From: a virus
IMG/VR virus record: IMGVR_UViG_3300027535_000001
Location: 1-62,037 of that record
DNA length: 62,037 nucleotides
Reading direction: 5' to 3' (one strand)
Part shown: positions 1,551 through 62,037 of the stretch, in pieces
How the letters are laid out: each line of letters opens with the position of its first letter
How positions within the stretch are numbered: the stretch's first letter is position 1
The notes under the pieces: generated by a model
The model's database searches: none
What the model was told of the DNA's origin: nothing
Seen by the model: only the letters and a program-made list of their open reading frames with translations
Position numbers and translations under genes: made by a program

Positions 1551-1562
1551 TCTGGATTCCTT

Positions 1563-2176: not shown

Positions 2177-2319
2177 GTGTGGTCCCAATCGTCGCTCGTG
2201 TCCACTTCCAAATCAAAAATAAAATAGTCGCACGCCTCGCAGTACCAGCCACCGGTCACGTTGGTGGTCGGGTCATCTTCTTCCTGCTCCATGCGGGCGT
2301 CACATTTTGGGCAATTCAT
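2173..2319 (-). CDS. zinc-ribbon protein (48 aa)
   Basis: MNCPKCDARMEQEEDD...GGWYCEACDYF has CxxC...CxxC. ATGA overlaps at both ends (2316-2319 and 2173-2176). Below the 60-aa ORF-track cutoff. Confidence 0.6.
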   Translation of the reverse strand: MNCPKCDARMEQEEDDPTTNVTGGWYCEACDYFIFDLEVDTSDDWDHT

Positions 2320-3902
2320 AGTTCCCCCTTCCTCACCATATCGAGCAGCACACCTTGCAGCCGCTCGTTTGTTCCCAATCGCCGATAAATCTCACGCTCC
2401 AACAAGTTGCTCACAATCTGCACCACCGTTACCGGATAGCGCTGCCCAGGTCGATGCGCGCGTTTGTTCGCTTGAAGATATAGCTCAGTGCGATCGGTTG
2501 GTCCGTACCAGATAACAGTACGAGCCGCCCAAAGGTCCAATCCGTGCGCCATGCAGCCGGGATCAGCAATGAGAATCCGGGGGTCCGCCCCAGATTGGAA
2601 ACTTTGAAATATCCGGGCGCGATCCTTGGCCGAGACGTTCCCATTGACGATCTCCCGCGTCCATCCGTCCAGTTCCTTGTACAGTAACTCCACGACACTC
2701 GTCAAGGGCACGAACAGCAATATTTTTCCTGGCGCCTGCTCGATGACGGCTTTAAGCTCCTCTACCCGAGGCGAAGCGTCGACCGCGTGCCAATTATGAG
2801 CCGAATCGTAAACCGCGCCAAGGCTAATCTGGATAAATTTTAACCTGGCGGTCGCCTCGTTGGCGGCCGTTATCGGTTGACCGGAACGGATTACCACCTG
2901 CAAGTCGCGCTTAAGCTCGGCCATGAGGGTTTTTTGTTGTGCGGTGAGCGGCACCCCCCGCTGCTGGGTGGTCATCTCGGGACCGTCCCACACGTCGCTA
3001 ATTGCGAAGCGGATCGAGGGTGTCAGCAGCTTCCTAGCCTTGTCGTAACCATCCCGGCGCGGGACCCACTTGAACTGCGATATTTTCTGCATCGTATCGG
3101 CTTGGAACGTCGTGAACGACTTGCCGAAGGCGTTGTTGACCAGCCTGGCGAGCCCGTAGGCGTCGGTGGGCGCGTTCGGCGTCGGTGTGCCTGTGAGGCA
3201 CCACAAGTAATCGCGCCGCAGCACGAGCCTCGCAATGCGGTGGCGGGCAGTGCGCGAGTCCTTGTAGGCACTGGCCTCATCGATGATCGCTATTTTTATG
3301 TCGGTACGCTCGGCGAGCGCCTTGGAGAAGCCGCGTAGCTCCAGCTTGGGGCGTGTCCTGGCGCCGACACCTACGCCGTCAAAATTGATGATGTAGAAAT
3401 CCGCCGGCTTGGCCAAGCGGGCGAGGCGCTGATCGGGGGTGCCGTGAAGTATCTCGAACGTGCGGTGGCCGAGAAAATTCTTGAATATCGCGTCCCCCCA
3501 CACCCGTTGCAGGATCGATAGCGGCGCCACGATGAGAGCGCGGCAAGTCCCTACCGGATAGTGCCGCATCAACCAGTCGGCAGCCCACAGCGTTGCCAAA
3601 GTCTTGCCAGTGCCCATGTCGGACAGATTGAAGCTCTTGGGATGCAAGAGCATATAGTTGCTGGCGAGCTTTTGCGACTCGTACGGCCGAATCCCCGGCA
3701 TCGCGGGAAAATCATAGCCGTCCATGATCGGCACCACCGGATAGTTGAGCCACCGGAGTATCTGACAATTGCGCAACGTACGCGGCACCGCCACATACTC
3801 GCCGTTGATCTGCTTCGTCTCAGGGATGGCTTGCGTCAACGCAAGCGCATTCTGGCTCGGGTAGAGCAGGACGTTACGCGTGGTGTCGTGGTAGAAACTC
3901 AT
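2316..3902 (-). CDS. SNF2/Rad54-family DNA helicase
   Basis: 528 aa. Motif I DMGTGKT, motif II DEASAYKD, LTGTP, C-terminal helicase motif HRPGQ. Confidence 0.9.
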   Translation of the reverse strand: MSFYHDTTRNVLLYPSQNALALTQAIPETKQINGEYVAVPRTLRNCQILRWLNYPVVPIMDGYDFPAMPGIRPYESQKLASNYMLLHPKSFNLSDMGTGKTLATLWAADWLMRHYPVGTCRALIVAPLSILQRVWGDAIFKNFLGHRTFEILHGTPDQRLARLAKPADFYIINFDGVGVGARTRPKLELRGFSKALAERTDIKIAIIDEASAYKDSRTARHRIARLVLRRDYLWCLTGTPTPNAPTDAYGLARLVNNAFGKSFTTFQADTMQKISQFKWVPRRDGYDKARKLLTPSIRFAISDVWDGPEMTTQQRGVPLTAQQKTLMAELKRDLQVVIRSGQPITAANEATARLKFIQISLGAVYDSAHNWHAVDASPRVEELKAVIEQAPGKILLFVPLTSVVELLYKELDGWTREIVNGNVSAKDRARIFQSFQSGADPRILIADPGCMAHGLDLWAARTVIWYGPTDRTELYLQANKRAHRPGQRYPVTVVQIVSNLLEREIYRRLGTNERLQGVLLDMVRKGEL

Positions 3903-4210
3903 TTTATTACGTCAGTGCCCCACATGCCGTTTTGCACTTCCAACCAGTAAAGTTCGCCATCCCGCATCGACACGAGAAAAGTGCGCCCACCCGCTTCTCT
4001 TATTTCACGCATCGTCTGCCGCTGTTTGGGCGTCGGCTTCTCCACGCCCTCTTTCTTAGCCTCCACGCCCCAAAACTGTCCACGGGCGCAGACAAAGAAG
4101 TCGAGAGCGCGAGCGCCGTAGCCCATTTGGACGGGAAGAAAATAGTAGTAGCCGTTTTGCTTGAACCACTTCTTTAGCTTGTCCTTGGTCCACGACTCAG
4201 GGGTTTTCAT
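3899..4210 (-). CDS. VRR-NUC domain nuclease
   Basis: Start MKTPESW at 4210 (ATGA overlap). D...ExK core LDFFVCARGQFWGVEAKK followed by PTPKQRQTMREIREAGG. Confidence 0.75.
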   Translation of the reverse strand: MKTPESWTKDKLKKWFKQNGYYYFLPVQMGYGARALDFFVCARGQFWGVEAKKEGVEKPTPKQRQTMREIREAGGRTFLVSMRDGELYWLEVQNGMWGTDVIK

Positions 4211-4368
4211 TCGCGATCCCACACCCGCTTGGTATATTCGACTAGCGCATCCCAAACAGAAGGTTCGATGTAGACAATGCTGTCCCCATCTTCCCGTGGT
4301 GCACGTAAGCAAATTTGGTATCCGTCGTCCGAAGCGTACAAGCCATCACCGAGGTACGTTTCATTCAT
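4207..4368 (-). CDS. hypothetical small protein (53 aa)
   Basis: Internal start MNETYLGDG at 4368 gives ATGA overlaps at both ends. The longer ORF 4207-4443 would overlap the upstream gene by 79 nt. Confidence 0.5.
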   Translation of the reverse strand: MNETYLGDGLYASDDGYQICLRAPREDGDSIVYIEPSVWDALVEYTKRVWDRE

Positions 4369-5045
4369 GCTCGCCTCCCATTGTGCTGACAGTCGAGAAC
4401 ATCGCAATGGGCTTTGCACAACCCGTTGGGTTTCTTCTCCCAATCGCTGCTCTCGATTTCGGCAACCAGACGGCTTACCTCGTCATAGGTTTTCTTCGTA
4501 TCGGACAGGTCGTACATCTGCCCGACACGGTTCTCCTTGAGCCACGTATAGGTGCCGCTGATGCGCGTGAGTTGTGGATTGTTGGCGTGCAACAAAAGCG
4601 CTCCGATTTCCAGCTCGAACGGGTCCTCGTAACGAGATGAGCCGGTTTTCAGGTCGTTCATATACGCGGCCACATCTTGGATAACCACGAGATCGAGCTT
4701 TCCACGCAACCAAACATCTTTGGCCCAATAGTCAGCGGGCGCCCCATCCGCCAGCATGCCCAACTTCAACTCGGTCCTTGCCTGCAAGCCGTCGAACGGA
4801 CTGGCGAAGCATTCCCACTGTCGCATCGACTCAGGCAGCGGCTTGCCGGCACCGATCCGATGCTCGAACGCCGCGTGAACCTCGTTCCCAAAACGCATTG
4901 CGTCCGTCTCGACGTACGGCAAATCCCGCTTGACGTAGCGCCGGTACGTCTGGTGCGGGCAAACGTTGCGATAATTGTTGAGTATCGAGTACGTGTAGAC
5001 CAGTTTTCGCCGGTCGAGCACGGCAGGCAGCTCAGGGTAATTCAT
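4365..5045 (-). CDS. PD-(D/E)XK (RecB/Cas4-like) exonuclease
   Basis: Start MNYPELP at 5045. GKLDLV...NDLKTG nuclease core. N-terminal Cys plus C-terminal CKAHCDVLDC cluster, as in Cas4/AddB-type nucleases. Confidence 0.7.
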   Translation of the reverse strand: MNYPELPAVLDRRKLVYTYSILNNYRNVCPHQTYRRYVKRDLPYVETDAMRFGNEVHAAFEHRIGAGKPLPESMRQWECFASPFDGLQARTELKLGMLADGAPADYWAKDVWLRGKLDLVVIQDVAAYMNDLKTGSSRYEDPFELEIGALLLHANNPQLTRISGTYTWLKENRVGQMYDLSDTKKTYDEVSRLVAEIESSDWEKKPNGLCKAHCDVLDCQHNGRRA

Positions 5046-5179
5046 CGGCAACACCCCTGATGCGCGCACTTGCCGCCGCTGATAACCAGGCCGTGCTCGG
5101 CGCAAGGGATCGCAACGACGAGCCAGACCACGAACACCATCATGATAGCCGTTACGGCGCCCCACATGATGCTTGTCAT
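5042..5179 (-). CDS. small single-pass membrane protein (45 aa)
   Basis: MTSIMWGAVTAIMMVFVVWLVVAIP... ATGA overlaps with the DNA polymerase stop (5176) and with the next gene (5042). Confidence 0.5.
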   Translation of the reverse strand: MTSIMWGAVTAIMMVFVVWLVVAIPCAEHGLVISGGKCAHQGCCR

Positions 5180-7047
5180 TTGCTGTACCTCTCGCTTAGA
5201 GAGCCTTCGGCATCGAGCGGAATGCCGGGGAGCCATGTGGGTTCTTGTCGCATCTCGTCGACGCAAAGCTGCAAGTGGCGTTCCTCGTTGCCATCTCGGG
5301 GGATGAGCATTACAGCCTCATCATAGGTGCTGGTTACCACGCGATAGCCGTGGCGGGCAATGCGCGTGCGCGCTTGGACGAAAATTATACGTGCAAGCCA
5401 TTGTACGCAGTTTTCGACGAGTTTACTGTGGTACAGGTCGGCCCACCCGTTGCGCGTGCGGTGCCGCCAGTAACCCGTATGTTTGAATGGCGGCAGCTTC
5501 TCGCACTCCTCCGTGCTCGGCCGGTGATACTCCAGCGTATCGTATTTGAGCATCGTTCCGCCAGGGCCGTAGATGCGCTTGTTCATGATACGCATCGGTC
5601 CCCACTCGACCGGCTCGCCACCGGCAATGCGCGAGATCATCCGGCCGGCTTGCGACCAGTAGCCGTCAGGACGGCCGCAAATCGCCTGGTGGGTGTCGCG
5701 ATAGAGATTCACCATGCGCTCGGCTTCTTGAATCTCAAGGTAGACCGGCGGCCCATAGATGCCGAGCTTGGCGGTTGCCTGGAACTTTGTCGGACCACAA
5801 CCGAACCCGCAAGACAATTCCGCTTGTTTGCCGGTGCCTCGCTCAGGCTTGTCGTCTTTGGTAATCGGCCGTTGGTAGAACTGACTGGCGATGCCGATGT
5901 ACGGATCGACGCCATTGCGAAAGCGCTCGATCACGTCCCATTGGCCGGCCAAAAAGTTGAGCAGCCGGGCCTCGATTTGCGCCAAATCTACGATGCCGAG
6001 TAAATAACTTTCCGGCGCCATGATGGCCTTGCGTAGTGGCGAGGCTTCCTTGGGACTGTCGGGGTCGCTGCGGCGAAGGTTCAAGAAGTTGGACGAATCC
6101 CCGCCCGAGTCGCGCCCCGTGTGGGCGCCGGCATAGCGCACGTAAACGCACAGTGGACCACGGCTGGCCATGTACCCCAGCGTCTCGGCTCGGGTCTGCA
6201 TTAAGGTGGACTTGGCGCCCAGCCGCGCCTCTGCCAACGCGCGCACACGGTCGCTCTCATCCTCTTGAAGGTCTCTCATAAATTGGTCGTTTTTGGCGAA
6301 CGCATAGATCGGGCCGTTCTTGCCGTCCTTCATCTCGGGCTCGACACCTTCGGCGCGAAGGAGGGAAGCAAACTGTTCACTTGATTGAAGCTCGGCCTCG
6401 ACAATGCCAAGCTCTTTCATGCGGGCTTCTTTAAGGGTTGCTTCGCGTTCCCAAATTTTTGCCAACAAATCGATGTCACCGCGTAGAACTGGCTCGGTAA
6501 AAAGCTTGACCGTTAAATCAATAACTTCCAATTCTTCCGGTGGAAAATCCTTCAACAAAATACCAAACAGCTTCCAAATACTTTCCACCTCATCACAAGC
6601 CCCCTCGGCCATTTGTTGCTGAACTACCGGGCTCAACTCATTCCAATGTTTTCCCTTAAAGAGTCCGTATGGCGTGGTCTTTGGCGGAAACCCAAATTGC
6701 TTGCGAACCGAGTCGAGACTGACGCTGATGTGGTTCCCCAATAGCAAGCGCGCCATCGACAGCGTGCAGCCGCTCATTTTGGGATGCACGCCGTAATGAT
6801 GCGAAAGTATTAAATGGTCAAACTGGCTGTGGTGACTTATGAGAAACACGTCACTCCAGTCCTCATCCGCCAACACCTGCCGTAGCTGGCGCTCGTCATA
6901 CCAGCGCGCCGCATGATCGGCGGACCATTTAATGGCGGCGCCGTGCGCCTCAAAACGCGAATCGCGAATATAATGTTCGGTCGTCTGTTTGGACAGCGTA
7001 TAGTCGTCGCTGTAGACCGTCTCAAAATCGATGACAATGATTCTCAC
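5176..7047 (-). CDS. family A DNA polymerase with 3'-5' exonuclease domain
   Basis: 623 aa. Exo I IVIDFET. Pol motif A DLAQIEARLL, motif B RGTGKQAELSCGFGCG, motif C TSTYDEAV. Confidence 0.9.
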   Translation of the reverse strand: MRIIVIDFETVYSDDYTLSKQTTEHYIRDSRFEAHGAAIKWSADHAARWYDERQLRQVLADEDWSDVFLISHHSQFDHLILSHHYGVHPKMSGCTLSMARLLLGNHISVSLDSVRKQFGFPPKTTPYGLFKGKHWNELSPVVQQQMAEGACDEVESIWKLFGILLKDFPPEELEVIDLTVKLFTEPVLRGDIDLLAKIWEREATLKEARMKELGIVEAELQSSEQFASLLRAEGVEPEMKDGKNGPIYAFAKNDQFMRDLQEDESDRVRALAEARLGAKSTLMQTRAETLGYMASRGPLCVYVRYAGAHTGRDSGGDSSNFLNLRRSDPDSPKEASPLRKAIMAPESYLLGIVDLAQIEARLLNFLAGQWDVIERFRNGVDPYIGIASQFYQRPITKDDKPERGTGKQAELSCGFGCGPTKFQATAKLGIYGPPVYLEIQEAERMVNLYRDTHQAICGRPDGYWSQAGRMISRIAGGEPVEWGPMRIMNKRIYGPGGTMLKYDTLEYHRPSTEECEKLPPFKHTGYWRHRTRNGWADLYHSKLVENCVQWLARIIFVQARTRIARHGYRVVTSTYDEAVMLIPRDGNEERHLQLCVDEMRQEPTWLPGIPLDAEGSLSERYSK

Positions 7048-7415
7048 TCGGTCACTCTCTGCGCCACCAGCCTCGCCACGTTCTTTACCGCCACGTCGAA
7101 CGGCTCGCCAGTCACCCGCATGGCAATTTCGGTTGCGGCTTTCAGCTCCCTGGCGGCTTTCCCGATTGCCTGCTCCATCTGCTGCTTGGCCAGCACGATC
7201 GCATTATTGGTCTCGATCAATTGCCGAGCATCGTCATCCTTGGCAAGCGCTCTCTCGCCTTCCGGCGTAATCACGTTGTTGAACTTGTCGTGCCGCTTGA
7301 GCAGACCTTGCGCCACCAGGGACTCGACCGGCTTCTCCCAGCGGCCGATCGGCATCATCGACTCACCTTGCGCGGCGATCATGAGAACAGTTAGCTCATC
7401 GTTGGAAAGGGTCAT
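7044..7415 (-). CDS. hypothetical protein (winged-helix-like N-terminus)
   Basis: ORF 7044-7439. Preferred start MTLSNDELTVLMIAAQGE at 7415 (ATGA overlap with tiny ORF). 4-nt overlap with the polymerase start. Confidence 0.65.
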   Translation of the reverse strand: MTLSNDELTVLMIAAQGESMMPIGRWEKPVESLVAQGLLKRHDKFNNVITPEGERALAKDDDARQLIETNNAIVLAKQQMEQAIGKAARELKAATEIAMRVTGEPFDVAVKNVARLVAQRVTE

Positions 7416-7486
7416 TCCCAAGCCACCGCTATGACACAAGCGACCATGATCAGTGTCACTAGTGTAATCAATATTTCAGGGGTCAT
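7412..7486 (-). CDS. tiny hydrophobic peptide (24 aa)
   Basis: MTPEILITLVTLIMVACVIAVAWE. Stop overlaps the downstream ATG (ATGA). Confidence 0.35.
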   Translation of the reverse strand: MTPEILITLVTLIMVACVIAVAWE

Positions 7487-7490
7487 AATT

Positions 7491-7559
7491 TCACCTCCAC
7501 GCCGCATACATGAGCGCCAAGCCGTGAACGAGCAGCACCAAACCGAGCAAGAGGTTCAT
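7491..7559 (-). CDS. tiny hydrophobic peptide (22 aa)
   Basis: MNLLLGLVLLVHGLALMYAAWR. ATG overlaps the upstream stop (ATGA at 7556-7559). Confidence 0.35.
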   Translation of the reverse strand: MNLLLGLVLLVHGLALMYAAWR

Positions 7560-7807
7560 TTCAACGCCGCATCGATCATCGCCTGCCAAGCGTCAAGCGT
7601 GGCTTTCACGGTCCAGTCCCGCGCTTCCGCCATGTGCTCGAACATTTGCATTTCGCCTTGTCTCACCATATCGGGCGTCGGTTCACGCATTGCCGCGATG
7701 GCTGCACGGCTAAGTCTACGTCTAAACTCTGGCGAAGCGTAGATAAGTCCGCTCTCACCTAGTCTATCTACAAGAGCCTTGGCCACCCGCTCAACCATCT
7801 CACTCAT
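7556..7807 (-). CDS. hypothetical protein (83 aa)
   Basis: Internal start MSEMVERVAKAL at 7807 gives an ATGA overlap with the upstream gene. The longer ORF to 7987 overlaps that gene. Confidence 0.6.
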   Translation of the reverse strand: MSEMVERVAKALVDRLGESGLIYASPEFRRRLSRAAIAAMREPTPDMVRQGEMQMFEHMAEARDWTVKATLDAWQAMIDAALK

Positions 7808-8061
7808 AGCTTGACGAGCCTCCGCTTTGCACCGCGATGCGAGCCGGTCTCCGACGCGATCTTGAAACCGAGCGGCATGAGTGTCTTTCGATTGAAGTCG
7901 TGGATCAACACGCCGATCGAGGACCACGCCCACAGCGGCCCACCCTCCGGGTCGTCCCGGTACACCTCGTCGGCAAGCTCGTGGCACGTCATGCCGTTGC
8001 GGTTGATAAAGAGGGCGTGAAAGATGCGTTCGGTGATGTTCACGGGATCAGCCTCGCACAT
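7804..8061 (-). CDS. hypothetical protein; start uncertain (ATG 8061, GTG 8043 or ATG 8115)
   Basis: ORF 7804-8115. GTG 8043 overlaps the stop of a tiny hydrophobic ORF (GTGA). Body NITERIFHALFINRNGMTCHELADEVY looks winged-helix-like. Confidence 0.55.
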   Translation of the reverse strand: MCEADPVNITERIFHALFINRNGMTCHELADEVYRDDPEGGPLWAWSSIGVLIHDFNRKTLMPLGFKIASETGSHRGAKRRLVKL

Positions 8062-8132
8062 GCGGTTAATACGGCGCCGATGCCGTACATGATAAAGAAC
8101 ATCGCGAGGTTCCATAGGACGAAGCGGATCAT
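8040..8132 (-). CDS. tiny hydrophobic peptide (30 aa)
   Basis: MIRFVLWNLAMFFIMYGIGAVLTACARLIP. ATGA overlap upstream (8129-8132) and GTGA overlap downstream. Confidence 0.3.
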   Translation of the reverse strand: MIRFVLWNLAMFFIMYGIGAVLTACARLIP

Positions 8133-8215
8133 GGCGGCGGCCATAATAGTACTAATATAAAAACGAGCGCGAAAATAGTTAAAATAATCAACCAGGAAAT
8201 AGTGGCGAATTCCAT
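8129..8215 (-). CDS. tiny hydrophobic peptide (28 aa), or alternatively an AT-rich regulatory spacer
   Basis: MEFATISWLIILTIFALVFILVLLWPPP. Lies in a locally very AT-rich stretch. Start abuts the stop of the XRE gene. Confidence 0.3.
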   Translation of the reverse strand: MEFATISWLIILTIFALVFILVLLWPPP

Positions 8216-8466
8216 CATAACCCCCAATTAAATTGCCGCCCGTTAAGCTCCGCGTCCACGCCTTGACAAGCGCGACGGTACCTCAGCCACACCCAATCGC
8301 GCACCGGCCGGGACGGATAGCCGGGACGATTGGCGGTCGCGCCTTTCTCCATCCAGTAGACAGCGGACGGCGAGAAGCCGGTGAGCTTCCCGAGCTGGGC
8401 TTGGGAAAGGCCGCGCGCGCGGCGCCAAGCGGCGGCCTTCTCGTGCTCAAGGATGGGCTTTTTCAT
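8215..8466 (-). CDS. XRE-family HTH regulator
   Basis: Start MKKPILEHEK at 8466 (ATGA overlap). HTH ARGLSQAQLGKLTGFSPSAVYWMEKG. Confidence 0.75.
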   Translation of the reverse strand: MKKPILEHEKAAAWRRARGLSQAQLGKLTGFSPSAVYWMEKGATANRPGYPSRPVRDWVWLRYRRACQGVDAELNGRQFNWGL

Positions 8467-8675
8467 GCCGCCTCGCTCTTGGCGATAACCCACCCCCGCA
8501 CTTCGGCCATGCGCTCCAGGCCCGAAAGGTAGGCGCGCGAAAGGTCGGCGCCCGATTTTAGCGCCCAGCGGACGGCGAGACCAATTTTAATCGCTACACT
8601 TGCGTCCGTCGCGCAATCAATCTCGGCCGTGAACTGCACCGCACCCGTAAAGCGGTTCTTGATTTCGTACTGCAT
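8463..8675 (-). CDS. hypothetical protein (70 aa), first gene of a leftward operon
   Basis: MQYEIKNRFTGAVQFTAEIDC... Preceded by GGGGA RBS. A divergent intergenic region lies upstream. Confidence 0.65.
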   Translation of the reverse strand: MQYEIKNRFTGAVQFTAEIDCATDASVAIKIGLAVRWALKSGADLSRAYLSGLERMAEVRGWVIAKSEAA

Positions 8676-8790
8676 GGTAATCCCCTTTTCGTGTTCGACC
8701 CGAAAACTGTACTATCTCATGGTACGCCTCGTCAAGTACCAAATTCATTGACAAGTCGGGCGCGAGGCGCGCAGCCTTGAGAAAGGAAAA

Positions 8791-8816
8791 CCCGCCACCG
8801 AGGGGGCGGTGGCGGG
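8791..8816 (-). terminator. candidate intrinsic terminator acting on leftward transcription
   Basis: Perfect 10-bp GC stem cccgccaccg/cggtggcggg with a 6-nt loop. On the minus strand it is followed by TTTTCCTTTCTC. Confidence 0.5.
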
Positions 8817-8912
8817 CTTAGTACTGGTCGAACACGGGCGGGGAAGCGCTCGCAAGGGGCTACGAACCCCCCTCTTGTATACGCTCCCCAGCCAAAACGC
8901 AAGGGCTAGAAC

Positions 8913-11066
8913 ATGCTGGTGGAAGCGCTTGGATACGCGGCGTTCGGCTGGCGGGTGGTGCCGCTCGCCGGCATGGTCGACGGGCGCTGCACCTGCGGCA
9001 AGGATTGCGGGAAGGACGCCGGGAAACACCCTAGAATCCGCAAGGGAAAAGGCGGGTGGGGATCGTCGGACCCGAACCAGGTGCGGGCCTGGTGGGAGAA
9101 GTGGCCCGACTCGAACATCGGCATCGCGACGGGCTCCGGGCTGGTCGTCATCGACCTTGACGACTCACCCCAACTTGCTGCGTTCCAACAACTTTTAGGT
9201 GGCGCCGAGTTGCGCACCTTGGTGGCGCAAACCGGGCGCGGGTGGCACGTCTACGTTGCGGGAGACATGCCAACGTCCCGTAATGTCGGGGATATTTTGG
9301 TTCGCGGCGAGGGATCGTATGTGGTGGCGCCACCGAGCCGGCATCGTTCGGGAGCAATCTACCGCTGGATTCGCCAGGGGCCGATCGCCGAGTGGCCGGA
9401 AGCAGTCAAGAAATGGGCGCTGGAGGGTGCGGCAAATGCGCACGCCTACGCTAAAGCTACGGCGCTGCAAGCGCAATTGGGACAAATTCCTTCGTATATA
9501 CAACAGACTAACACGTTATCCTCAAAAGCTACCCTTACCCAATGGACGCCAGCCGAAGAAGAAAGAATACGTAGCGCGCTCAAAGCCATACCGGCGTCGG
9601 TGCAGCGCAAACCTTGGCTCGATATCGGCATGGCGCTCCACTCCCTCCAGTGGGAGCGGCCGGACGGCTCGAACGCGGGTTTTGAGATTTGGGACGAGTG
9701 GTCGAGCACGTGCGAGGCGAAATATAGCCGGCACGATACCGAGACGCGGTGGGGCTCGTTTAAAAGGTCGGGGATTGGGATAGGGACCTTGTTTCACTTA
9801 GCGGGGGAAGCGGGATGGCAGGAAATCAATGGCGTGCTCGCAACGGTGCCTACGCTGGTCATGGGCGCCGAACCCATCCAATTCGACCTGGACCGCTACC
9901 GGAACCCCAAACCGACATGCGTAAACGCCAGACGCGCCATACAGCGCCTCGGGCTCGTATGCCAGCGTGACACCTTTCACGACCGGATGACGGTCGGAGG
10001 CCAGCCAGCCGGCGAGTGGGCCGGCGAGGTGTCAGATTATACCGACCAAGCGTTGCGCGTGATGATCCACCAGCAATTCGGGTTCGACCCTGGAACGATG
10101 AACACGCACGACGCGATCGTGCAGGAGTGCCTTGCACACTCGTTCCACCCCATCCGGGCTTATCTCGACGGGCTCCGTTGGGACGGCCGGCCGCGAATCG
10201 CTCAATGGCTATCCACTTACCTGCAAGCCGACAATACTGATCTTAATCGGGAAATAGGCCGTCTTACGCTTTTGGCGGCGGTGCGGCGCGTGCGACGACC
10301 CGGCGCCAAGTTCGACCCTATCATGGTGCTCGAAAGCCCGGAGGGCACCGGCAAATCCGGGGCGGTCGAGATGCTGGCGGGAAAAGAGAACTTCTCGGAC
10401 CAAACCATTCTCACCCTCGATGACCGGGGCCAGCAGGAAGCCGTGCAAGGCGTCTGGCTCTACGAAATCGCAGACCTAGCGGGAAAGTCCCGCGCCGATC
10501 TGGATCGCGTCAAGACCTTCGCCAGCCGCACAGCCGACCGGGCGCGGCCGGCCTATGGGCGGCACCGGGTAGACCGGCCGCGTCAAAACGTGTTCATCGG
10601 CACCACCAATGAAAAAATGTATTTGCAAAGCGAGACGGGCAACCGGCGCTTTTGGGGGGTGGAGGTGGGAATAACCCAGCTAGACGAGCTGGGCGCCGAC
10701 CGTGATCAGTTGTGGGCGGAAGCGTCCTACATGGAAGCGCAAGGCGCCACGATAGATTTGCACCCCCGGTATTGGGAGCCGATGGGCGAGCGTCAAAGCG
10801 CCCGCATGGTAGGCGACCCATGGGACGACATTTTGCGCAACGTGGTCGGGACCGAATACCTGCGGGAAAGTAACTTGGATATCGAGCAAAGGATTTCCAC
10901 AAGGGACTTATTCGAGGTATGGCTTAAAATCCCCGCGCATCAGCAGACCAATCATATGTATAAACGACTAAGCTACATCATGAAGCGGTTAAAATGGGAA
11001 GGGCCTGCGATATTTAAGAACAAGGAAAACAGCGTTGTGCGCGGTTATAAGCGTAGTTTGCCGTAA
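8913..11066 (+). CDS. bifunctional primase-polymerase / PriCT / VirE-D5-type P-loop helicase
   Basis: 717 aa. N-terminal Prim-Pol block (FGWRVVPL...GKHPR...NIGIATGSGLVVIDLD). Middle PriCT-like block (WLDIGMALHS...IWDEWS). Walker A ESPEGTGKS. Confidence 0.85.
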   Translation: MLVEALGYAAFGWRVVPLAGMVDGRCTCGKDCGKDAGKHPRIRKGKGGWGSSDPNQVRAWWEKWPDSNIGIATGSGLVVIDLDDSPQLAAFQQLLGGAELRTLVAQTGRGWHVYVAGDMPTSRNVGDILVRGEGSYVVAPPSRHRSGAIYRWIRQGPIAEWPEAVKKWALEGAANAHAYAKATALQAQLGQIPSYIQQTNTLSSKATLTQWTPAEEERIRSALKAIPASVQRKPWLDIGMALHSLQWERPDGSNAGFEIWDEWSSTCEAKYSRHDTETRWGSFKRSGIGIGTLFHLAGEAGWQEINGVLATVPTLVMGAEPIQFDLDRYRNPKPTCVNARRAIQRLGLVCQRDTFHDRMTVGGQPAGEWAGEVSDYTDQALRVMIHQQFGFDPGTMNTHDAIVQECLAHSFHPIRAYLDGLRWDGRPRIAQWLSTYLQADNTDLNREIGRLTLLAAVRRVRRPGAKFDPIMVLESPEGTGKSGAVEMLAGKENFSDQTILTLDDRGQQEAVQGVWLYEIADLAGKSRADLDRVKTFASRTADRARPAYGRHRVDRPRQNVFIGTTNEKMYLQSETGNRRFWGVEVGITQLDELGADRDQLWAEASYMEAQGATIDLHPRYWEPMGERQSARMVGDPWDDILRNVVGTEYLRESNLDIEQRISTRDLFEVWLKIPAHQQTNHMYKRLSYIMKRLKWEGPAIFKNKENSVVRGYKRSLP

Positions 11067-12400: not shown

Positions 12401-12420
12401 AACTTGGCCCTTTCGTTTTC

Positions 12421-12460
12421 GGCATGATCGCCGCAGATAGCGCCCGTGTAGAGCGCTATC
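12421..12460. repeat. intergenic motif GGCATGATCGCCGC + 8-bp hairpin (family member 1)
   Basis: ggcatgatcgccgc (12421-12434), then stem gatagcgc (12436-12443) / gcgctatc (12453-12460). Confidence 0.7.
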
Positions 12461-12468
12461 GACTCCGA

Positions 12469-12807
12469 TCAATCGGCATTCGCCTTTTGGTGTTCTACAT
12501 AGTCGCGGCGCGAGGCGACGCTACAGAAAATCCCGTAACTGTAGGATGATTGGCCGCGCTCTTTGGTGGGCAGGCAATAGGGCAGATACGCGGGCTTGGC
12601 TTTGCGCGCTTCGCGCCAGCATAGAGCGGCAAAGGAAGCGATGGCGCGCTTGGACAGTCCGAAAGTTTCGCCGCTGTCCAACATAGAGGCCTCGTCGCGT
12701 ATGGCGTTTTTCAACTCGCGCCTGGTAGTGACCATAACCACGTAAGGGTCGCCATCCGGCATGTAGCAACCGCGAAGCCCGTGCATGATGTGAAAATATT
12801 TCGCCAT
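12469..12807 (-). CDS. hypothetical protein (112 aa)
   Basis: Start MAKYFHIMHGLRGCYMPDG at 12807, preceded by the conserved leader aggtctaacccaaaaggagtc. Confidence 0.65.
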   Translation of the reverse strand: MAKYFHIMHGLRGCYMPDGDPYVVMVTTRRELKNAIRDEASMLDSGETFGLSKRAIASFAALCWREARKAKPAYLPYCLPTKERGQSSYSYGIFCSVASRRDYVEHQKANAD

Positions 12808-12839
12808 GGTCTCGACTCCTTTTGGGTTAGACCTATTCC

Positions 12840-12880
12840 GGCTTGATCGCCGCACTAGCCTGCCACGGCGGACAGGCTAG
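12840..12880. repeat. intergenic motif GGCTTGATCGCCGC + hairpin (family member 2)
   Basis: 41 nt, near-identical (2 mismatches) to 13236-13276. Stem ctagcctg (12855-12862) / caggctag (12873-12880). Confidence 0.8.
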
Positions 12881-12902
12881 GACCGCAATCATTCGTTGAC
12901 AT

Positions 12903-13208
12903 TCATGGTGACATCAACCGAGCAGGCAATTGTATCCAATGGCCACAATCGCAACGTTCGCCGTTGTCACACACAAAGCGATTAACCACGACATTATCGC
13001 TTTGGTGATTGCACTCGTATGTGCCGCCAGCGACCACACCACACTCGGCACAAAACTCCACACTATCGCCGCCTTCGTGACACCCGTTCCAGCCCTCATA
13101 TTTTAGATCGGAGTGACTAGCGCAATAGTCACGATGGTAAGCGTCGGAACAGAATGGGATTACGTCAACCACATTACCGACACCATTTTCAATGATATGC
13201 ACATGCAT
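12903..13208 (-). CDS. Cys/His-rich hypothetical protein (101 aa)
   Basis: MHVHIIENGVGNVVDVIPFCSDAYHRDYCASH...CAECG...CDCGHW. Multiple CxxC/H pairs. Confidence 0.65.
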   Translation of the reverse strand: MHVHIIENGVGNVVDVIPFCSDAYHRDYCASHSDLKYEGWNGCHEGGDSVEFCAECGVVAGGTYECNHQSDNVVVNRFVCDNGERCDCGHWIQLPARLMSP

Positions 13209-13235
13209 GTTCCTGTCCTTTCCAAGGTTCAGGTC

Positions 13236-13276
13236 GGCATGATCGCCGCTCTAGCCTGCCACGGCGGACAGGCTAG
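13236..13276. repeat. intergenic motif GGCATGATCGCCGC + hairpin (family member 3)
   Basis: ggcatgatcgccgc, then ctagcctgcc acggc ggacaggctag. Lies between the stop at 13285 and the start at 13208. Confidence 0.8.
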
Positions 13277-13284
13277 GACTGAGA

Positions 13285-13557
13285 TCAGTAGTAGCAATGA
13301 CGGAATACGTGGTTGCCTTCGCCGTCGTCCGTCACATAGCCGCGCACGGTACAGCCGGCCAAGCGAGTGACGGCGGGGATAGAAAAGTATGTATCGGCTT
13401 CGCCCGTGATGTAGACGCTGCGCCGCATGTCACCCGCTAGGTTGTCGAGACGGCAATTGTTGATTCGGGCGAGTGAGGGTCCGCCCATCCATTCGGCATA
13501 CCAAGCGATAGCGCCATCGGCTTGCGTCTCGGCTTTGTCCGCGCGGTACTTTTGCAT
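13285..13557 (-). CDS. hypothetical protein (90 aa)
   Basis: MQKYRADKAETQADGAIAWYAEWMGGPSLARINNCRLDN... Clean ORF in the leftward operon. Confidence 0.65.
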   Translation of the reverse strand: MQKYRADKAETQADGAIAWYAEWMGGPSLARINNCRLDNLAGDMRRSVYITGEADTYFSIPAVTRLAGCTVRGYVTDDGEGNHVFRHCYY

Positions 13558-13569
13558 GATATTGGTCCT

Positions 13570-13749
13570 TTATCCGTGCGCCATTATGCGCGTTTGTCCG
13601 GTAGGCAGCTCGGCGAGTAGAGCGCAACGCGGACCCTGCTGGCGCAAAAGGTCCGCTATGCGGTCTAGGGCGAGCTGTGGTATGGTGGCTGGGTCCGCTT
13701 CAAAGCGGAGTAGTTCGCGGCCGGTGCAGAGAATGCGGAAGGTGATCAT
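13570..13749 (-). CDS. hypothetical protein (59 aa)
   Basis: Preferred start MITFRILCTGRELLRFEAD at 13749, 5 nt after the upstream stop. Confidence 0.5.
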   Translation of the reverse strand: MITFRILCTGRELLRFEADPATIPQLALDRIADLLRQQGPRCALLAELPTGQTRIMAHG

Positions 13750-13753
13750 GGTG

Positions 13754-14014
13754 TCACCCGCGCAAGTCGAGAATGACGCGGGCGCGGTCCCAATCAGGAT
13801 TGTGGTTATTGCGCGCGTCACAGTTGATGGCAGTAGCAGCGGCGCCGAGTCGTGAGGCTATTTCGTATTGTTTATCGTGAAACGCGGCGCTTGCTTGGAT
13901 GCGAAGATAGGAGGCGATAGTTTTGGGGTCGCGGCCGACATTATCGTCACCGCGCGAGCCGATGAGACTGTGGCAGTACAGTAACTCGCCGTCTTTCCAT
14001 TCGGTCATAAGCAT
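13754..14014 (-). CDS. hypothetical protein (86 aa), first gene of the leftward arm
   Basis: MLMTEWKDGELLYCHSLIGSRGDD... Preceded by the conserved leader aggtctaacccaaaggagtc (AAGGAG RBS). Confidence 0.65.
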   Translation of the reverse strand: MLMTEWKDGELLYCHSLIGSRGDDNVGRDPKTIASYLRIQASAAFHDKQYEIASRLGAAATAINCDARNNHNPDWDRARVILDLRG

Positions 14015-14109
14015 CGGTCCCGACTCCTTTGGGTTAGACCTGTTCTAGTGACTTTACTATCTAGTATGCGAGGTAGGGCGTATATCCGTAGGAATACGTA
14101 TGTGACAGA
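14015..14109. promoter_or_regulatory. divergent control region between the two genome arms, with palindromic operator candidates
   Basis: TACTAtcTAGTA palindrome at 14055-14066. 20-bp imperfect palindrome cgtatatccgtaggaatacg at 14079-14098. Genes diverge at 14014 (-) and 14110 (+). Confidence 0.5.
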
Positions 14110-58876: not shown

Positions 58877-58949
58877 GACCGCTCTCCCTGTTGACGCCCC
58901 TACATACGCCCCTTGACAGACGGTGTCAATAGGGGGTAGTTATTGAGCC

Positions 58950-59600
58950 ATGAACATTAGGACATCCGGTCGGCGCAAGGCGGCCAAACCGCCCCCGGCT
59001 GAGCCGGATGACCCAAAACCGGCGCTTATAGGCTATGCCCGTGTCTCGACCGAAGATCAGAACCTTGATCTCCAGATTGACGCCCTGCGGAAAGCCGGGT
59101 GCGTCAACATCTGGCAGGAGCACGTTTCGGGCGCGGCGAAGGTGCGTACCGAACTCGACCATGCCATCGCGGACCTGCGGCCGGGCGAGACGCTGGTCGT
59201 GTGGCGGCTCGATCGGCTCGCCCGGTCCATGCGCGACCTTTACGCCCGGCTCGACCAGATTTATGCACAGGGCGCCGGGTTTCGCAGCCTTACGGAGAGC
59301 TTCGACTTCGGCACGGTCACCGGCAAGTTCGTCCTGGGCATCCTGGGGCTCGTCGCCGAGCTGGAGCGCCAGCTTACCATCGTGCGCACCAAGGCCGGCA
59401 TGGCGGCGGCGAAGGCCAGGGGCAAGACTTTCGGGCGGGTGCGGCGGATGACCCCAGCGGCGATCGACAGAGCTGAGGGGCTTCTGAAACGCGGCTGGAA
59501 GGTCAAGGCGGTCGCCAAGGCGATCGGCGTCAAGACGCCCTCGATCTATGGCCACTTCTGGATCAAGGGCGGGAAGGTGCGCCGTAAGGCGCGATTGTAA
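58950..59600 (+). CDS. Hin/Gin/Cin-type small serine recombinase (DNA invertase/resolvase)
   Basis: 216 aa. IGYARVSTEDQNLDLQ, GETLVVWRLDRLARS and AELERQLTIVRTKAG, with C-terminal HTH GWKVKAVAKAIGVKTPSIY. Confidence 0.9.
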   Translation: MNIRTSGRRKAAKPPPAEPDDPKPALIGYARVSTEDQNLDLQIDALRKAGCVNIWQEHVSGAAKVRTELDHAIADLRPGETLVVWRLDRLARSMRDLYARLDQIYAQGAGFRSLTESFDFGTVTGKFVLGILGLVAELERQLTIVRTKAGMAAAKARGKTFGRVRRMTPAAIDRAEGLLKRGWKVKAVAKAIGVKTPSIYGHFWIKGGKVRRKARL

Positions 59601-59612
59601 GAGGAGGCCGGC

Positions 59613-59867
59613 ATGCGGGAAGCGGACTTTGCGATGAGGGGGCAGGCGCCGTCGCGTCCGATAACAGGGGACGTTGAGATTGATTACACCAATCATCGAG
59701 GCGAACGGCGATGGCGTCGTGTACTCCCCATGAAACTGACCTACGGTCTTAGCGAGTGGCATCCAGGCAACCAGTGGATTTTGCTTGCGCACTGCCATGA
59801 AAAGAACCAAGCGCGAGAGTTCGCCATGTCAGAAGTTCATGGTTGGCGACCTGTGGCGCAATTGTAG
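59613..59867 (+). CDS. stand-alone WYL-like domain protein
   Basis: 84 aa. VEIDYTNHRGERRWRRVLPMKLTYG...NQWILLAHCHEKNQAREFAMSEVHGW follows the WYL pattern (Y..G....R.v.P..l....W.L.a.c....R.F). Confidence 0.5.
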   Translation: MREADFAMRGQAPSRPITGDVEIDYTNHRGERRWRRVLPMKLTYGLSEWHPGNQWILLAHCHEKNQAREFAMSEVHGWRPVAQL

Positions 59868-59873
59868 AAGGAG
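59857..59873 (+). repeat. conserved junction motif CGCAATTGTAGAAGGAG, copy 1
   Basis: Perfect 17-mer (21-mer as GTGNCGCAATTGTAGAAGGAG). Contains the upstream TAG stop and the AAGGAG RBS. Confidence 0.9.
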
Positions 59874-59878
59874 CCGAC

Positions 59879-60100
59879 GTGGCCCACCGTATCAGCCTCG
59901 GACCAACTCTGGCGCAGCAAGAACGCGCGCACGAACGGCTGATAAAACGCAAAAAGCGGCTGAATGATGGCGACGCAACGCACGACTGGTTCATTCCGAA
60001 GTTCATCGGATATGAATGCTGTCGGCGATGCGGGATCGTCCGTCGCTCCGATCGGCAGAATACCCGGTGCAAGGGAACCGTGAAGGTAGGGCCTCGATGA
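59879..60100 (+). CDS. hypothetical Cys-containing protein (73 aa), GTG start
   Basis: GTG 59879 lies 5 nt after the motif's AAGGAG. AHRISLGPTLAQQERAHERLIKRKKRL...YECCRRCG. Confidence 0.5.
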   Translation: MAHRISLGPTLAQQERAHERLIKRKKRLNDGDATHDWFIPKFIGYECCRRCGIVRRSDRQNTRCKGTVKVGPR

Positions 60101-60558
60101 GCGACGACGGCGGCGACAAGATCGTAGGACATAAGACGTTCTCTGACGGCCCGATGAGCTTTCGGCACGAGCCGCTGACAAAGCGTGAGGCTGACGCACT
60201 TTGGGAAGCCGCCGAGAAGGCCAAGGCCGACCGGGCACAGCGTATGCCTGATGAGCGTGCCGCTATCCGCGCTCTATGGGAGGCTCACCAGCGGCTCCAA
60301 GAACTCGGTTGGCGCGAGGCCATCTATTGCCCGAAGGACGGCACATCGTTTCAGGTAATCGAGCCCGGCAGCACTGGAATTTTTGAGTGCCATTATTCCG
60401 GCGAATGGCCGAAAGGATCATGGTGGATCGCAGACGAAGGCGATTTGTATCCGTCACACCCGATCCTGTTCAAACTCTACCCAGAAGATCAGGCAAAGTA
60501 CGACGCCAAGATGGCTGAGGCGCGCGAACGCTATCGTGCCGAAACGTCCGAAGCATAG
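60097..60558 (+). CDS. hypothetical protein (153 aa)
   Basis: ATGA overlap. MSDDGGDKIVGHKTFSDGPMSFRHEPLTKREADALWEAAEK... Confidence 0.6.
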   Translation: MSDDGGDKIVGHKTFSDGPMSFRHEPLTKREADALWEAAEKAKADRAQRMPDERAAIRALWEAHQRLQELGWREAIYCPKDGTSFQVIEPGSTGIFECHYSGEWPKGSWWIADEGDLYPSHPILFKLYPEDQAKYDAKMAEARERYRAETSEA

Positions 60559-60572
60559 AGGGAGCCGGGCGC

Positions 60573-60890
60573 GTGGTTGATGGTGAAAGCTCTGGCGGCG
60601 TCGGCTACAGACTGATCCTGTCGTTCCCGGATCAATCATCTAGCTTTGCGTTCGGTTTTCATGCTGGCCAGATTTGGGCTGAGATGAAGCGCAACACATC
60701 GGCCGAGCTTACTTTCGATACGGCAACCGAGAATCGAGAAGTCATCCAACGCATGGCGGAACATCTCGGATGGTCGATCGACGTGAAGCCATCAGAAATC
60801 GACGGATGGGACACGACAATCTTGACGAAGGTCACGGGCGAAGGCAGGCGGATCAATCCGCATGGCTTGCGTATCGTGTCGCAATTGTAG
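60573..60890 (+). CDS. hypothetical protein (105 aa)
   Basis: GAGGGAG RBS, GTG start (or ATG 60580). Ends ...RIVSQL* inside motif copy 2. Confidence 0.55.
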   Translation: MVDGESSGGVGYRLILSFPDQSSSFAFGFHAGQIWAEMKRNTSAELTFDTATENREVIQRMAEHLGWSIDVKPSEIDGWDTTILTKVTGEGRRINPHGLRIVSQL

Positions 60891-60896
60891 AAGGAG
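60880..60896 (+). repeat. conserved junction motif CGCAATTGTAGAAGGAG, copy 2
   Basis: Perfect copy. Followed by ccgacGTGGCC, as in copy 1. Confidence 0.9.
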
Positions 60897-60904
60897 AGAC
60901 CGAC

Positions 60905-61126
60905 GTGGCCAGATTGAGCAAGGTCAAATCGTGGATGACGTTTTACGGGTGGACGCTTGGTGGTGGTCCTGGCTCTGTCAAACACGACGCCGATGGCAAG
61001 GTGATCGCCGCTCATGGCGACTCGGTTTGGAACAGCGACGTGAACATGGCTCTGATCCGTGACGATCGTGACGAGCAGAACGACAAGCTGATGGACGAGA
61101 TTGCCGCCAGCGGCGGCGCATTTTAA
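60905..61126 (+). CDS. hypothetical protein (73 aa), GTG start
   Basis: GTG 60905. ARLSKVKSWMTFYGWTLGGGPGSVKHDADGKVIAAHGDSVWNSD... Confidence 0.5.
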   Translation: MARLSKVKSWMTFYGWTLGGGPGSVKHDADGKVIAAHGDSVWNSDVNMALIRDDRDEQNDKLMDEIAASGGAF

Positions 61127-61206
61127 GGGAGAGCTACGGCGGTTGAACGTTGGTGCACCGCCTAGATTCCAAAACCTAAGCACCGACCGATTCGGAGATA
61201 GAACCC

Positions 61207-61344
61207 GATGACCGATGACCTCCAACAGAAAGTCGACACGCTGATCAACAAGGCGACTGCCGCAGAAAAATCGGAAGACGCTTTGAGGTTTTCTCAAGCG
61301 GCCCTGAACGCGGCGCATACCAAGCACGCGCTGGCCGAGTTTGA
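61207..61344 (+). CDS. possible small ORF (45 aa), weak
   Basis: MTDDLQQKVDTLINKATAAEKSEDALRFSQAALNAAHTQARAGRV. This is the only candidate in a 310-bp gap. Confidence 0.25.
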
Positions 61345-61436
61345 GCGGCCGAAAGACTGAACCGATAATTGGCGGTCCCGTTCCGCAACGGGGCCGCCTA
61401 GCTAGGTGATTGACGCAATCGTAAAGGGAGCGAACG

Positions 61437-61616
61437 ATGCAAGACCCAGCGCGACCGATGACTACCGAACAGAAAGCTCGCATGAGCCGAGAGCGGGCCG
61501 TCGCCGTCCAGGCGAAGCGAGATGGAAAGTGCATCAGCTATATCGATGATGACGGCTGCGAGGTCACAGTGACGCCGGGCGGTCACACTTTTTACAACGC
61601 CTCTGATTGGTACTGA
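61437..61616 (+). CDS. hypothetical protein (59 aa)
   Basis: AAGGGAG RBS in a degenerate motif copy. MQDPARPMTTEQKARMSRERAVAVQAKRDGKCISYIDDDGCEVTVTPGG... Confidence 0.5.
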   Translation: MQDPARPMTTEQKARMSRERAVAVQAKRDGKCISYIDDDGCEVTVTPGGHTFYNASDWY

Positions 61617-61624
61617 CGGGGTGA

Positions 61625-61641
61625 CGCAATTGTAGAAGGAG
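61625..61641 (+). repeat. conserved junction motif CGCAATTGTAGAAGGAG, copy 3 (fully intergenic)
   Basis: Perfect copy 9 nt after the upstream TGA and 9 nt before ATG 61651. Confidence 0.9.
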
Positions 61642-61650
61642 ACAGTCGCG

Positions 61651-61884
61651 ATGAGTGATGCCGCAGCAGTCAACACCGACCGCGAGCTATGGCGCGAACG
61701 CGATGGAGATTTTTATTCGCCGAGCATCCATGTGACGGTTGAGGGCGGCATAGGGATCGATGTCGGCGGCACGGTGATAGTTCTGTCCGTCTACGACTGG
61801 CATAGATTGGCGCTAGAGGATTCACACAGACCACCATCGCCGTACCCTGCTGGTCACGATTACGACAAACCAGCAACATTTTAG
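61651..61884 (+). CDS. hypothetical protein (77 aa)
   Basis: MSDAAAVNTDRELWRERDGDFYSPSIHVTVEGGIGIDVGG... Confidence 0.55.
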   Translation: MSDAAAVNTDRELWRERDGDFYSPSIHVTVEGGIGIDVGGTVIVLSVYDWHRLALEDSHRPPSPYPAGHDYDKPATF

Positions 61885-61898
61885 AGGAGACCGCACCA

Positions 61899-62037
61899 AT
61901 GGCTGATTTCTGCGTCGGCATGAGAGTTGAGCCCAGCCACGAATTTCGTCGGCAATTTCCAAACAGCACGGCGACGACCGGTGTTGTTGTCAGCACGACA
62001 ACGCGGCGCTATCCCGATTGTTGGAATGTGAAGTGGG
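61899..62037 (+). CDS. 5' part of the junction-spanning 73-aa ORF (continues at 34-116)
   Basis: AGAGGAGA RBS. MADFCVGMRVEPSHEFRRQFPNSTATTGVVVSTTTRRYPDCWNVKW... Confidence 0.5.
   Translation, partial: MADFCVGMRVEPSHEFRRQFPNSTATTGVVVSTTTRRYPDCWNVKW
62005..62037. repeat. 33-bp terminal direct repeat (copy of 1-33)
   Basis: Exact identity with the window start. Confidence 0.9.

Follow-up and report, generated by a model that had tools for sequence, protein, structure and literature searches.

The viral DNA considered here is a stretch of 62,037 nucleotides (IMG/VR record IMGVR_UViG_3300027535_000001, positions 1 to 62,037; hereafter the window), which carries near its end an array of small genes, one co-directional string made up of a small serine recombinase gene, an 84-amino-acid (aa) WYL-domain gene and nine more small genes, with copies of a short repeated motif at its gene junctions. 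This motif is a real, non-coding and lineage-specific junction, of the start-associated and boundary-sequence kind, in which a stop codon is joined to a ribosome-binding site (RBS). From its arrangement we lean, on balance, towards reading it as a portable stop/strong-RBS junction for promoterless small genes that would have spread by short-homology recombination.

The 17-mer CGCAATTGTAGAAGGAG occurs exactly three times, at 59857–59873, 60880–60896 and 61625–61641, always on the + strand, as a preliminary description of this DNA had reported from the letters alone, and two variants with three mismatches to it lie at 59590–59606 and 61414–61430. Dinucleotide-preserving shuffles gave 0.10 expected matches, and five were reached in 0 of 100 shuffles; among k-mers of at least 13 nt, the 17-mer is the only sequence that reaches three or more occurrences in the window. 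The exact copies extend to the 21-mers GTGNCGCAATTGTAGAAGGAG (59853–59873, 60876–60896 and 61621–61641), and the motif as a whole is 19–21 bases long, with the consensus (G)TG-N-CGCAATYGTARRRGGAG. The whole-window mismatch search that had been proposed returned five matches to the consensus GNCGCAATYGTARRRGGAG at one mismatch or fewer, all inside the array, and nothing within one mismatch lies outside the small-gene operon (59.6–61.9 kb). The stop-plus-Shine-Dalgarno (SD) half, TARRRGGAG, is present seven times in the window against 1.05 expected, and six of these are in the 2-kb array. No minus-strand match that could serve as an antisense partner was found within three mismatches in the window.

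The junctions were aligned by anchoring on GGAG, which gave seven strong copies, five in the window and two in a longer assembly of the same phage (L006, introduced below). All degenerate copies of the preliminary description, at 59590, at 61414, near 61120 and near 61878, were recovered. The copies are as follows.

59588–59606, + strand: J0, GGCGCGATTGTAAGAGGAG, with one mismatch to the consensus; its TAA is the recombinase stop, and GGAG lies 6 nt before the ATG at 59613.
59853–59873, + strand: J1, GTGGCGCAATTGTAGAAGGAG, containing the exact 17-mer (GGCGCAATTGTAGAAGGAG from 59855 in the GGAG-anchored alignment); its TAG is the WYL gene stop, and GGAG lies 5 nt before the GTG at 59879.
60556–60564, + strand: Ja, TAGAGGGAG, the stop-plus-SD half only, without the 5′ half, 8 nt before the GTG at 60573.
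60876–60896, + strand: J2, GTGTCGCAATTGTAGAAGGAG, containing the exact 17-mer (GTCGCAATTGTAGAAGGAG from 60878 in the alignment); its TAG is the stop of the 105-aa gene, and GGAG lies 8 nt before the GTG at 60905.
61115–61131, + strand: Jb, GGCGCATTTTAAGGGAG (GGCGCA-TTTTAAGGGAG), decayed; its TAA is the stop of a 73-aa gene.
61410–61430, + strand: J3, TTGACGCAATCGTAAAGGGAG, intergenic, 12 nt after a hairpin at 61371–61398 (GACGCAATCGTAAAGGGAG from 61412 in the alignment); GGAG lies 6 nt before the ATG at 61437.
61621–61641, + strand: J4, GTGACGCAATTGTAGAAGGAG, containing the exact 17-mer, intergenic (GACGCAATTGTAGAAGGAG from 61623 in the alignment); GGAG lies 9 nt before the ATG at 61651.
61873–61889, + strand: J5, GCAACATTTTAGAGGAG, decayed; its TAG is the stop of a 77-aa gene, and GGAG at 61886 lies 9 nt before the ATG at 61899.
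Longer assemblies of the same phage: J6, GGTGGCGCAATTGTAGAAGGAG, at the stop of a 96-aa gene (...KVAQL*).
Longer assemblies of the same phage: J7, TGACGCAATTGTAAAGGGAG.

The 5′ half of the motif can be written TG-N-CGCAATTG; further sub-segments are CGCAATTGTA and the A/U-rich CAAUUGUA. In the seven strong copies the 5′ half shows two changes in 56 sites, the three purines beside GGAG vary more, and the three sub-types TAGAAGGAG, TAAAGGGAG and TAAGAGGAG hardly differ in their 5′ half. That half has been lost from Ja, Jb and J5, the decayed copies, which retain the stop-plus-SD half; compared with GACGCAATTGTAAAGGGAG, Jb has one deletion and one substitution, and no normally spaced gene start follows it. 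The extent of identity between copies varies: J1 and J2 are both followed downstream by CCGACGTGGCC, and J1 and J6 are identical over 22 nt.

The position of the motif relative to the genes is highly regular. All seven strong copies lie on the coding strand, with GGAG 5–9 nt before a start codon that is also used by an independent gene call, and in 7 of 10 junctions the upstream open reading frame (ORF) stops at the TAG or TAA of the motif, 1–2 nt before GGAG, with the next start codon 11–14 nt after the stop. A stop codon abutting a strong SD with a close next start is the classic geometry both for termination-reinitiation coupling and for efficient de novo initiation, and the earlier suggestion of a translational coupling element fits this position. 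In the TGACGC versions the TGA is a second-frame stop, which is used by the 64-aa gene of a variant assembly. The TAG is the upstream stop in two of the exact copies, those of the 84-aa WYL gene (...PVAQL*) and the 105-aa gene (...IVSQL*), whereas the third exact copy is intergenic, as had been noted, since the 59-aa ORF upstream of J4 stops at a TGA at 61614–61616. Copies thus occur with or without an upstream ORF that ends in them (J3 stands after a hairpin, and J4 and J7 after the stop of the upstream ORF itself or a TGA stop), and the constant partner of the motif is therefore the downstream start codon. Genes of the array have stronger predicted SD pairing, with a mean of −9.3 kcal/mol against −6.1 kcal/mol for 42 other long genes (p = 3e-4), a comparison that uses crude gene calls and an assumed anti-SD sequence. 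Because the start codon is the constant element and the decayed copies keep only the stop and the SD, the primary selected function of the motif is most likely translational.

Neither shared descent of the genes nor coding constraint accounts for the repeats. The proteins that flank the motif copies are not homologous to each other, and paralogy of the flanking genes was rejected for that reason; this includes the two 73-aa, GTG-initiated proteins that follow copies 1 and 2 of the exact 17-mer (59879–60100 and 60905–61126), which are mutually unrelated and both listed by a public gene call made independently on a different assembly of this phage. The array is mosaic in origin and its genes are shared horizontally: homologues of the 153-aa, 105-aa, WYL and 96-aa genes are found singly in viral or metagenomic contigs that otherwise share little or nothing with this phage. 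No motif was found within four mismatches around the homologues of these four genes, and the junctions in their contigs are mostly ATGA overlaps.

In the array, the last codons of several genes are motif sequence. The 105-aa family ends in ...NPHGLRV(I/V)x* (homologues read ...NPHGLRVIR* or ...NPHGLRVVK*), conservation in the WYL family alignment stops at ...IHxWRP(V) and gives way to variable tails, and the 96-aa family, with 183 homologues that include proteins annotated from Bosea and Sphingopyxis, is conserved up to ...WMRCKV and likewise continues in variable tails. Family conservation ends directly before the motif in all three testable families, so that [A/S]QL* is motif sequence fused after the GTG codon of a valine; judging from these alignments, the tails replace the native C-termini of the families. 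The claim that the conservation is not explained by coding is upheld, since the homologues of all three families lack [A/S]QL* and three copies lie between genes. A longer upstream element of about 20 nt, suggested by the peptides HGWRPV and HGLRIV before copies 1 and 2, was also rejected; the likeness is coincidental, because both peptides are inherited in their respective families.

The same phage turned up in three other samples, through exact-protein look-ups and a scan of metagenomes.

L006: ENA ERZ28655473, a scaffold of 62,930 bp.
L037/L122: JGI 3300001593.
L121: JGI 3300001181.

Across the array these assemblies match the window at 100% identity, but L006 and L037/L122 carry an 871-bp unit that is missing from the window (the region corresponds to 11314–12402 in L006, lies on the minus strand in L037, and spans 61886–116 in the window). 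L121 ends within the last array gene, and the state of the unit is unreadable there. The order within the unit is last-gene copy A, a 30-aa gene, the 96-aa gene, the 64-aa gene and last-gene copy B, and it brings the two additional motif copies J6 and J7. Its copy number is zero in the window, one in L006 and at least two in L037. The last gene of the window is a hybrid, with a 5′ part from copy A and a 3′ part from copy B, which indicates that the sequence between these copies was deleted or collapsed in the assembly; the variation in the unit may accordingly be either population copy-number variation or assembly collapse/expansion of a tandem repeat. The homology between copies A and B covers 218 bp and begins exactly at the first G of the motif GGAG (window 61886), and upstream of it the junctions J5 and J7 differ.

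The motif is specific to one lineage so far. INPHARED phages, near and distant, gave no match. IMG/VR, the JGI metagenomes and GTDB were scanned with exact or purine-degenerate patterns, which variants mismatched at other positions would escape. On these terms three patterns returned only unrelated, chance-level singletons from IMG/VR, the JGI metagenomes gave 58 chance singletons plus the same phage, and 185,579 GTDB genomes gave 36 unrelated singletons, again at chance level. A distant relative of the replication module (L082, IMGVR_UViG_3300020042_006923), syntenic with window 1200–6300 at about 40% amino-acid identity, has a sole motif match, which falls inside the helicase reading frame and is due to chance. 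Separately, an unrelated phage-like contig (L134, Logan SRR13076504_440, 64.6 kb), which shares no more with this phage than the 96-aa gene family and a primase-like gene, contains at 3670–9411 a start region of its own, GGAGAACAACC(A)ATG, four times before unrelated genes. Repeated use of one start-site sequence is thus not unique to the phage studied here.

In the mechanism that we propose, the 3′ half of the motif (TAR-RR-GGAG) would supply a stop for the upstream frame and then a 6–7 nt SD for the downstream gene, and a terminating ribosome or a free 30S subunit would start the next gene efficiently at the junction. The 5′ half would contribute a second-frame TGA stop in three copies and an A/U-rich patch within a GC-rich mRNA, in which CAAUUGUA may add a standby or S1 site. 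The copies would be alike through copying and not through separate evolution: short-homology recombination between copies of the junction would have joined, duplicated or rearranged genes from unrelated phages, and every such event would automatically restore a stop and an RBS and swap the native C-terminal tail for [A/S]QL*. Identity over 17–22 nt at unrelated genes, the variable extent of that identity, the overwritten C-termini and the duplication edge at GGAG together suggest that junction copies recombine. The proposal of the preliminary description that the motif is a recombination boundary thereby gains circumstantial support, from the unrelated mosaic genes, the varying identity and the 218-bp duplication edge, and the motif may also mark recombination joints. 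Several points weigh against this reading. An SD alone needs no perfect CGCAATTG, and the 5′ half is more constant than the purines next to GGAG, a low variation that hints at sequence-specific recognition by a non-ribosomal factor. The lone structural polymorphism is explicable by recombination between the 218-bp gene copies, not between motifs, and carriers are limited to strain-level variants of one phage, which does not speak for exchange between phages.

The better conserved 5′ half lends weight to a trans-acting factor that would bind the motif and control the whole array, either as a translational repressor or RNA-binding protein or as a monomeric DNA repressor acting at a stoperator. 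Candidate binders would be the stand-alone WYL protein of the array, by its position and predicted fold, or a host CsrA-type protein, the sequence GUARRRGGA resembling the CsrA consensus. Proteins related in structure to the WYL beta-barrel of the first small gene bind single-stranded nucleic acid, and the site is asymmetric, in one orientation to transcription, located in short intergenic spaces at stop codons and confined to one operon, a geometry that matches that described for stoperators (PMC9283540) and for the Start-Associated Sequence (SAS; PMC3203893). We nevertheless consider such a factor unlikely: WYL homologues occur in other contigs without a repeated junction motif, the constant 5–9 nt to the start suits a ribosome site and is unnecessary for a stoperator, and a stoperator or repressor site was rejected on distribution, stoperators being genome-wide and the motif confined to one 2.3-kb stretch. 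An operator, as the preliminary description had allowed, finds no support in a dimeric form, because no inverted repeat is common to the copies and CAATTG alone is palindromic; avoidance of a restriction site does not account for it either, CAATTG being present at 21 sites in the genome. It is rather improbable that the motif has no dedicated function and is an ordinary strong RBS, its flanks identical through recent local duplication or gene conversion and due to decay. This would fit the gradient from perfect to decayed copies in which the stop-plus-SD half survives, the limitation to one lineage, and the comparable reuse of a start region in contig L134. The flanking genes are unrelated, however, and simple gene duplication therefore cannot have copied the junction, and an almost constant 5′ half in three sub-types is unexpected under neutral decay.

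Site-specific recombination fares worse. We think it highly unlikely that the array is a phage gene-cassette system with the junction of about 20 nt as a dedicated capture or shuffling site for the serine recombinase or a phage annealing protein; if it were, an imported ORF would receive a strong RBS and its neighbour a stop, a translational analogue of integrons and of the PeSL cassettes of phage T4. The narrower version, in which the adjacent small serine recombinase would use the motif itself for crossover and the genes would be integron-like cassettes, has hardly any probability in our view. A site-specific recombinase gene does head the array, its stop codon lies inside the first motif copy, direct repeats border nearly every gene and a multi-gene unit differs in copy number between assemblies. 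Dimeric resolvases and invertases, however, need paired half-sites (res, hix, gix), and the motif offers only the 6-bp CAATTG dyad, and lacks a pair of inverted half-sites flanking a central dinucleotide. An attC-like hairpin is likewise missing, the enzyme is a serine (Resolvase-type) recombinase and not a tyrosine integrase IntI, and general recombination suffices for a copy-number variant bounded by 218-bp homologous gene copies. Equally slight is the chance that the motif gives each small gene a separate transcript, as a promoter or as a site of RNase processing. RNase E prefers A/U-rich single-stranded sites, and CAAUUGUA is A/U-rich and probably single-stranded in a GC-rich RNA, but the promoter suggested earlier finds no support, as no copy has a + strand sigma-70-like match or hexamer pair, and a transcript starting within the motif would be almost leaderless. 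Screens of 10 large ORFs with Pfam (none over 1e-3) and of 10 with PHROGs (none below 1e-5) detected no phage RNA polymerase. A structured RNA, riboswitch or small RNA was likewise rejected: the copies have no common fold, their unpaired probabilities are inconsistent, and Rfam gave no match at gathering score in the whole window.

By analogy, the closest known system to this stop/RBS junction is the SAS of Cluster K mycobacteriophages, of which there are 11–19 per Cluster K genome (Pope et al. 2011, PMC3203893); it has been known since 2011, and a 2025 survey still lists its function as untested (PMC12699233). Both are short asymmetric repeats with an AGGAG core a few bases before start codons, both occur in a single orientation and at non-structural genes only, both precede genes of different families, the upstream stop codon sometimes lies within the repeat, and in both the conserved positions cannot all pair with 16S rRNA. 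They differ in sequence, as the SAS consensus GGGATAGGAGCCC gave, at up to two mismatches, two chance-level minus-strand matches and none near the array. The extra conserved bases of the present motif, the stop among them, are located on the 5′ side of the SD, whereas those of the SAS flank the SD on both sides; here a single operon holds all five strong copies of the window (seven in the longest variant), an ESAS-like inverted repeat is missing, and the motif belongs to another phage group and is known from one lineage. PeSL cassettes of T4-type phages, which consist of a sigma-70 promoter and a terminator stem-loop (Arbiol et al. 2010, PMC2839356; PMC4122927), are likewise expression signals present in several copies, on either side of small, non-essential ORFan genes within a plastic region, and recombination between their copies has been proposed to insert, delete and swap genes. 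The present motif is much shorter, translational rather than transcriptional and has no promoter or terminator, and an identification as PeSL was rejected in the absence of a + strand promoter match and of a shared hairpin. Boundary or linker sequences belong to the modular theory of phage evolution and, according to the passage of PMC3029335 in which that theory is cited, cannot be found at most mosaic boundaries. As described there, they too are identical short sequences at the boundaries of non-homologous genes that could support homologous recombination; in the present array such sequences are plain to see at almost all boundaries, in one lineage only. The recombining of junction copies that we suggest follows the logic proposed for PeSL (PMC2839356) and, in that passage, for boundary sequences (PMC3029335). 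The stoperators of Cluster A mycobacteriophages, 13-mers across the genome bound by the immunity repressor (PMC9283540), share the asymmetry, the short intergenic location and an orientation tied to the direction of transcription, but have no fixed distance to a start codon, while the motif here is local, carries an SD and has no known binder.

The genes of the array that bear on this account are listed below.

58950–59600, + strand: small serine recombinase of the resolvase/invertase family, 216 aa (Pfam Resolvase 6e-40; PHROG DNA invertase 1.7e-59); the first gene of the array, with its TAA stop inside J0.
59613–59867, + strand: stand-alone WYL-domain gene, 84 aa (Pfam WYL 4e-07); its final three codons and stop (AQL*) are motif sequence.
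59879–60100, + strand: first 73-aa GTG-initiated gene, function unassigned, with an ATGA overlap with the next gene (60097–60100).
60097–60558, + strand: 153-aa gene with homologues at 47–62% identity.
60573–60890, + strand: 105-aa gene, tail ...IVSQL*, of which SQL* is motif-encoded.
60905–61126, + strand: second 73-aa GTG-initiated gene, ending in the degenerate copy Jb.
61899–62037 and on to position 116, + strand: last array gene, 73 aa, a hybrid of two copies in the longer variants.

The predicted model of the 84-aa WYL protein (pLDDT 85.7) has its best structural matches in the WYL sensor domains of BrxR, PafBC, CapW and DriD, and among these the DriD and CapW entries were solved with bound single-stranded DNA. 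BrxR belongs to the BREX phage-restriction system; that a phage stand-alone WYL protein might act as a decoy for the ligand of such host regulators is speculation based on the model. No convincing inverted repeats that would delimit an invertible segment for the recombinase were found within 45–62 kb. After Jb, at 61127–61211, there is a possible 22-codon ORF (TTG 61143 to TGA 61209–61211) with an ATGA overlap with the ATG of a 50-aa gene, perhaps the remnant of a gene or a leader peptide that serves coupling. The hairpin at 61371–61398, between the 50-aa gene and J3, has 12 GC-rich base pairs (GGCGGTCCCGTT-CCGC-AACGGGGCCGCC) and no T-run, and may be an internal terminator, an attenuator or an RNA-stability element that splits the array.

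The contig is circular, with a length of 62,004 bp, as the first 33 bases of the window are identical to the terminal 33 (62005–62037), and the last array gene crosses the circular junction to end at position 116. The array is bordered by a divergent intergenic region (58877–58949) before it and by a head-on minus-strand gene (127–405) after it. Immediately 5′ of the recombinase gene, 58893–58949 contains the boxes TTGACG and TTGACA and the palindrome TTGACAgacggTGTCAA (58913–58929); this region may be the operon promoter with an operator, its −10 being weak, a consensus scan giving no call and the transcript nearly leaderless. The genome is phage-like: one side carries DNA polymerase, helicases and a primase-helicase, and there is also a long + strand block followed by a glycoside-hydrolase-like protein. 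The window contains no tRNA genes, and the closest primase among isolate phages has less than 37% identity. Between 19729 and 54571 almost every large + strand protein (407–1040 aa) is without a significant Pfam or PHROG match, so that the virion module appears very poorly represented in the reference libraries. A second family of repeated intergenic modules is found among the minus-strand genes of the early region (12417–14045): a 58-nt repeat with an internal hairpin at 12839–12896 and 13235–13292 (88% identity), an SD-containing junction AGGTCTAACCCAAA(A)GGAGTCG(A/G)GACC directly before two minus-strand gene starts (12808–12838 and 14016–14045), and a 19-nt repeat present three times at a spacing of about 400 nt.

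Boundary sequences are an old idea for phage mosaicism that is rarely seen in real genomes, and the array described here brings the SAS and boundary-sequence ideas together, in compact form, in a different phage group. Should the reading as a portable stop/strong-RBS junction be confirmed, it would illustrate how phages can extend an operon by promoterless accessory genes whose translation is guaranteed, and the array would offer a small, easily mutated model for the role of the non-SD part of such motifs.

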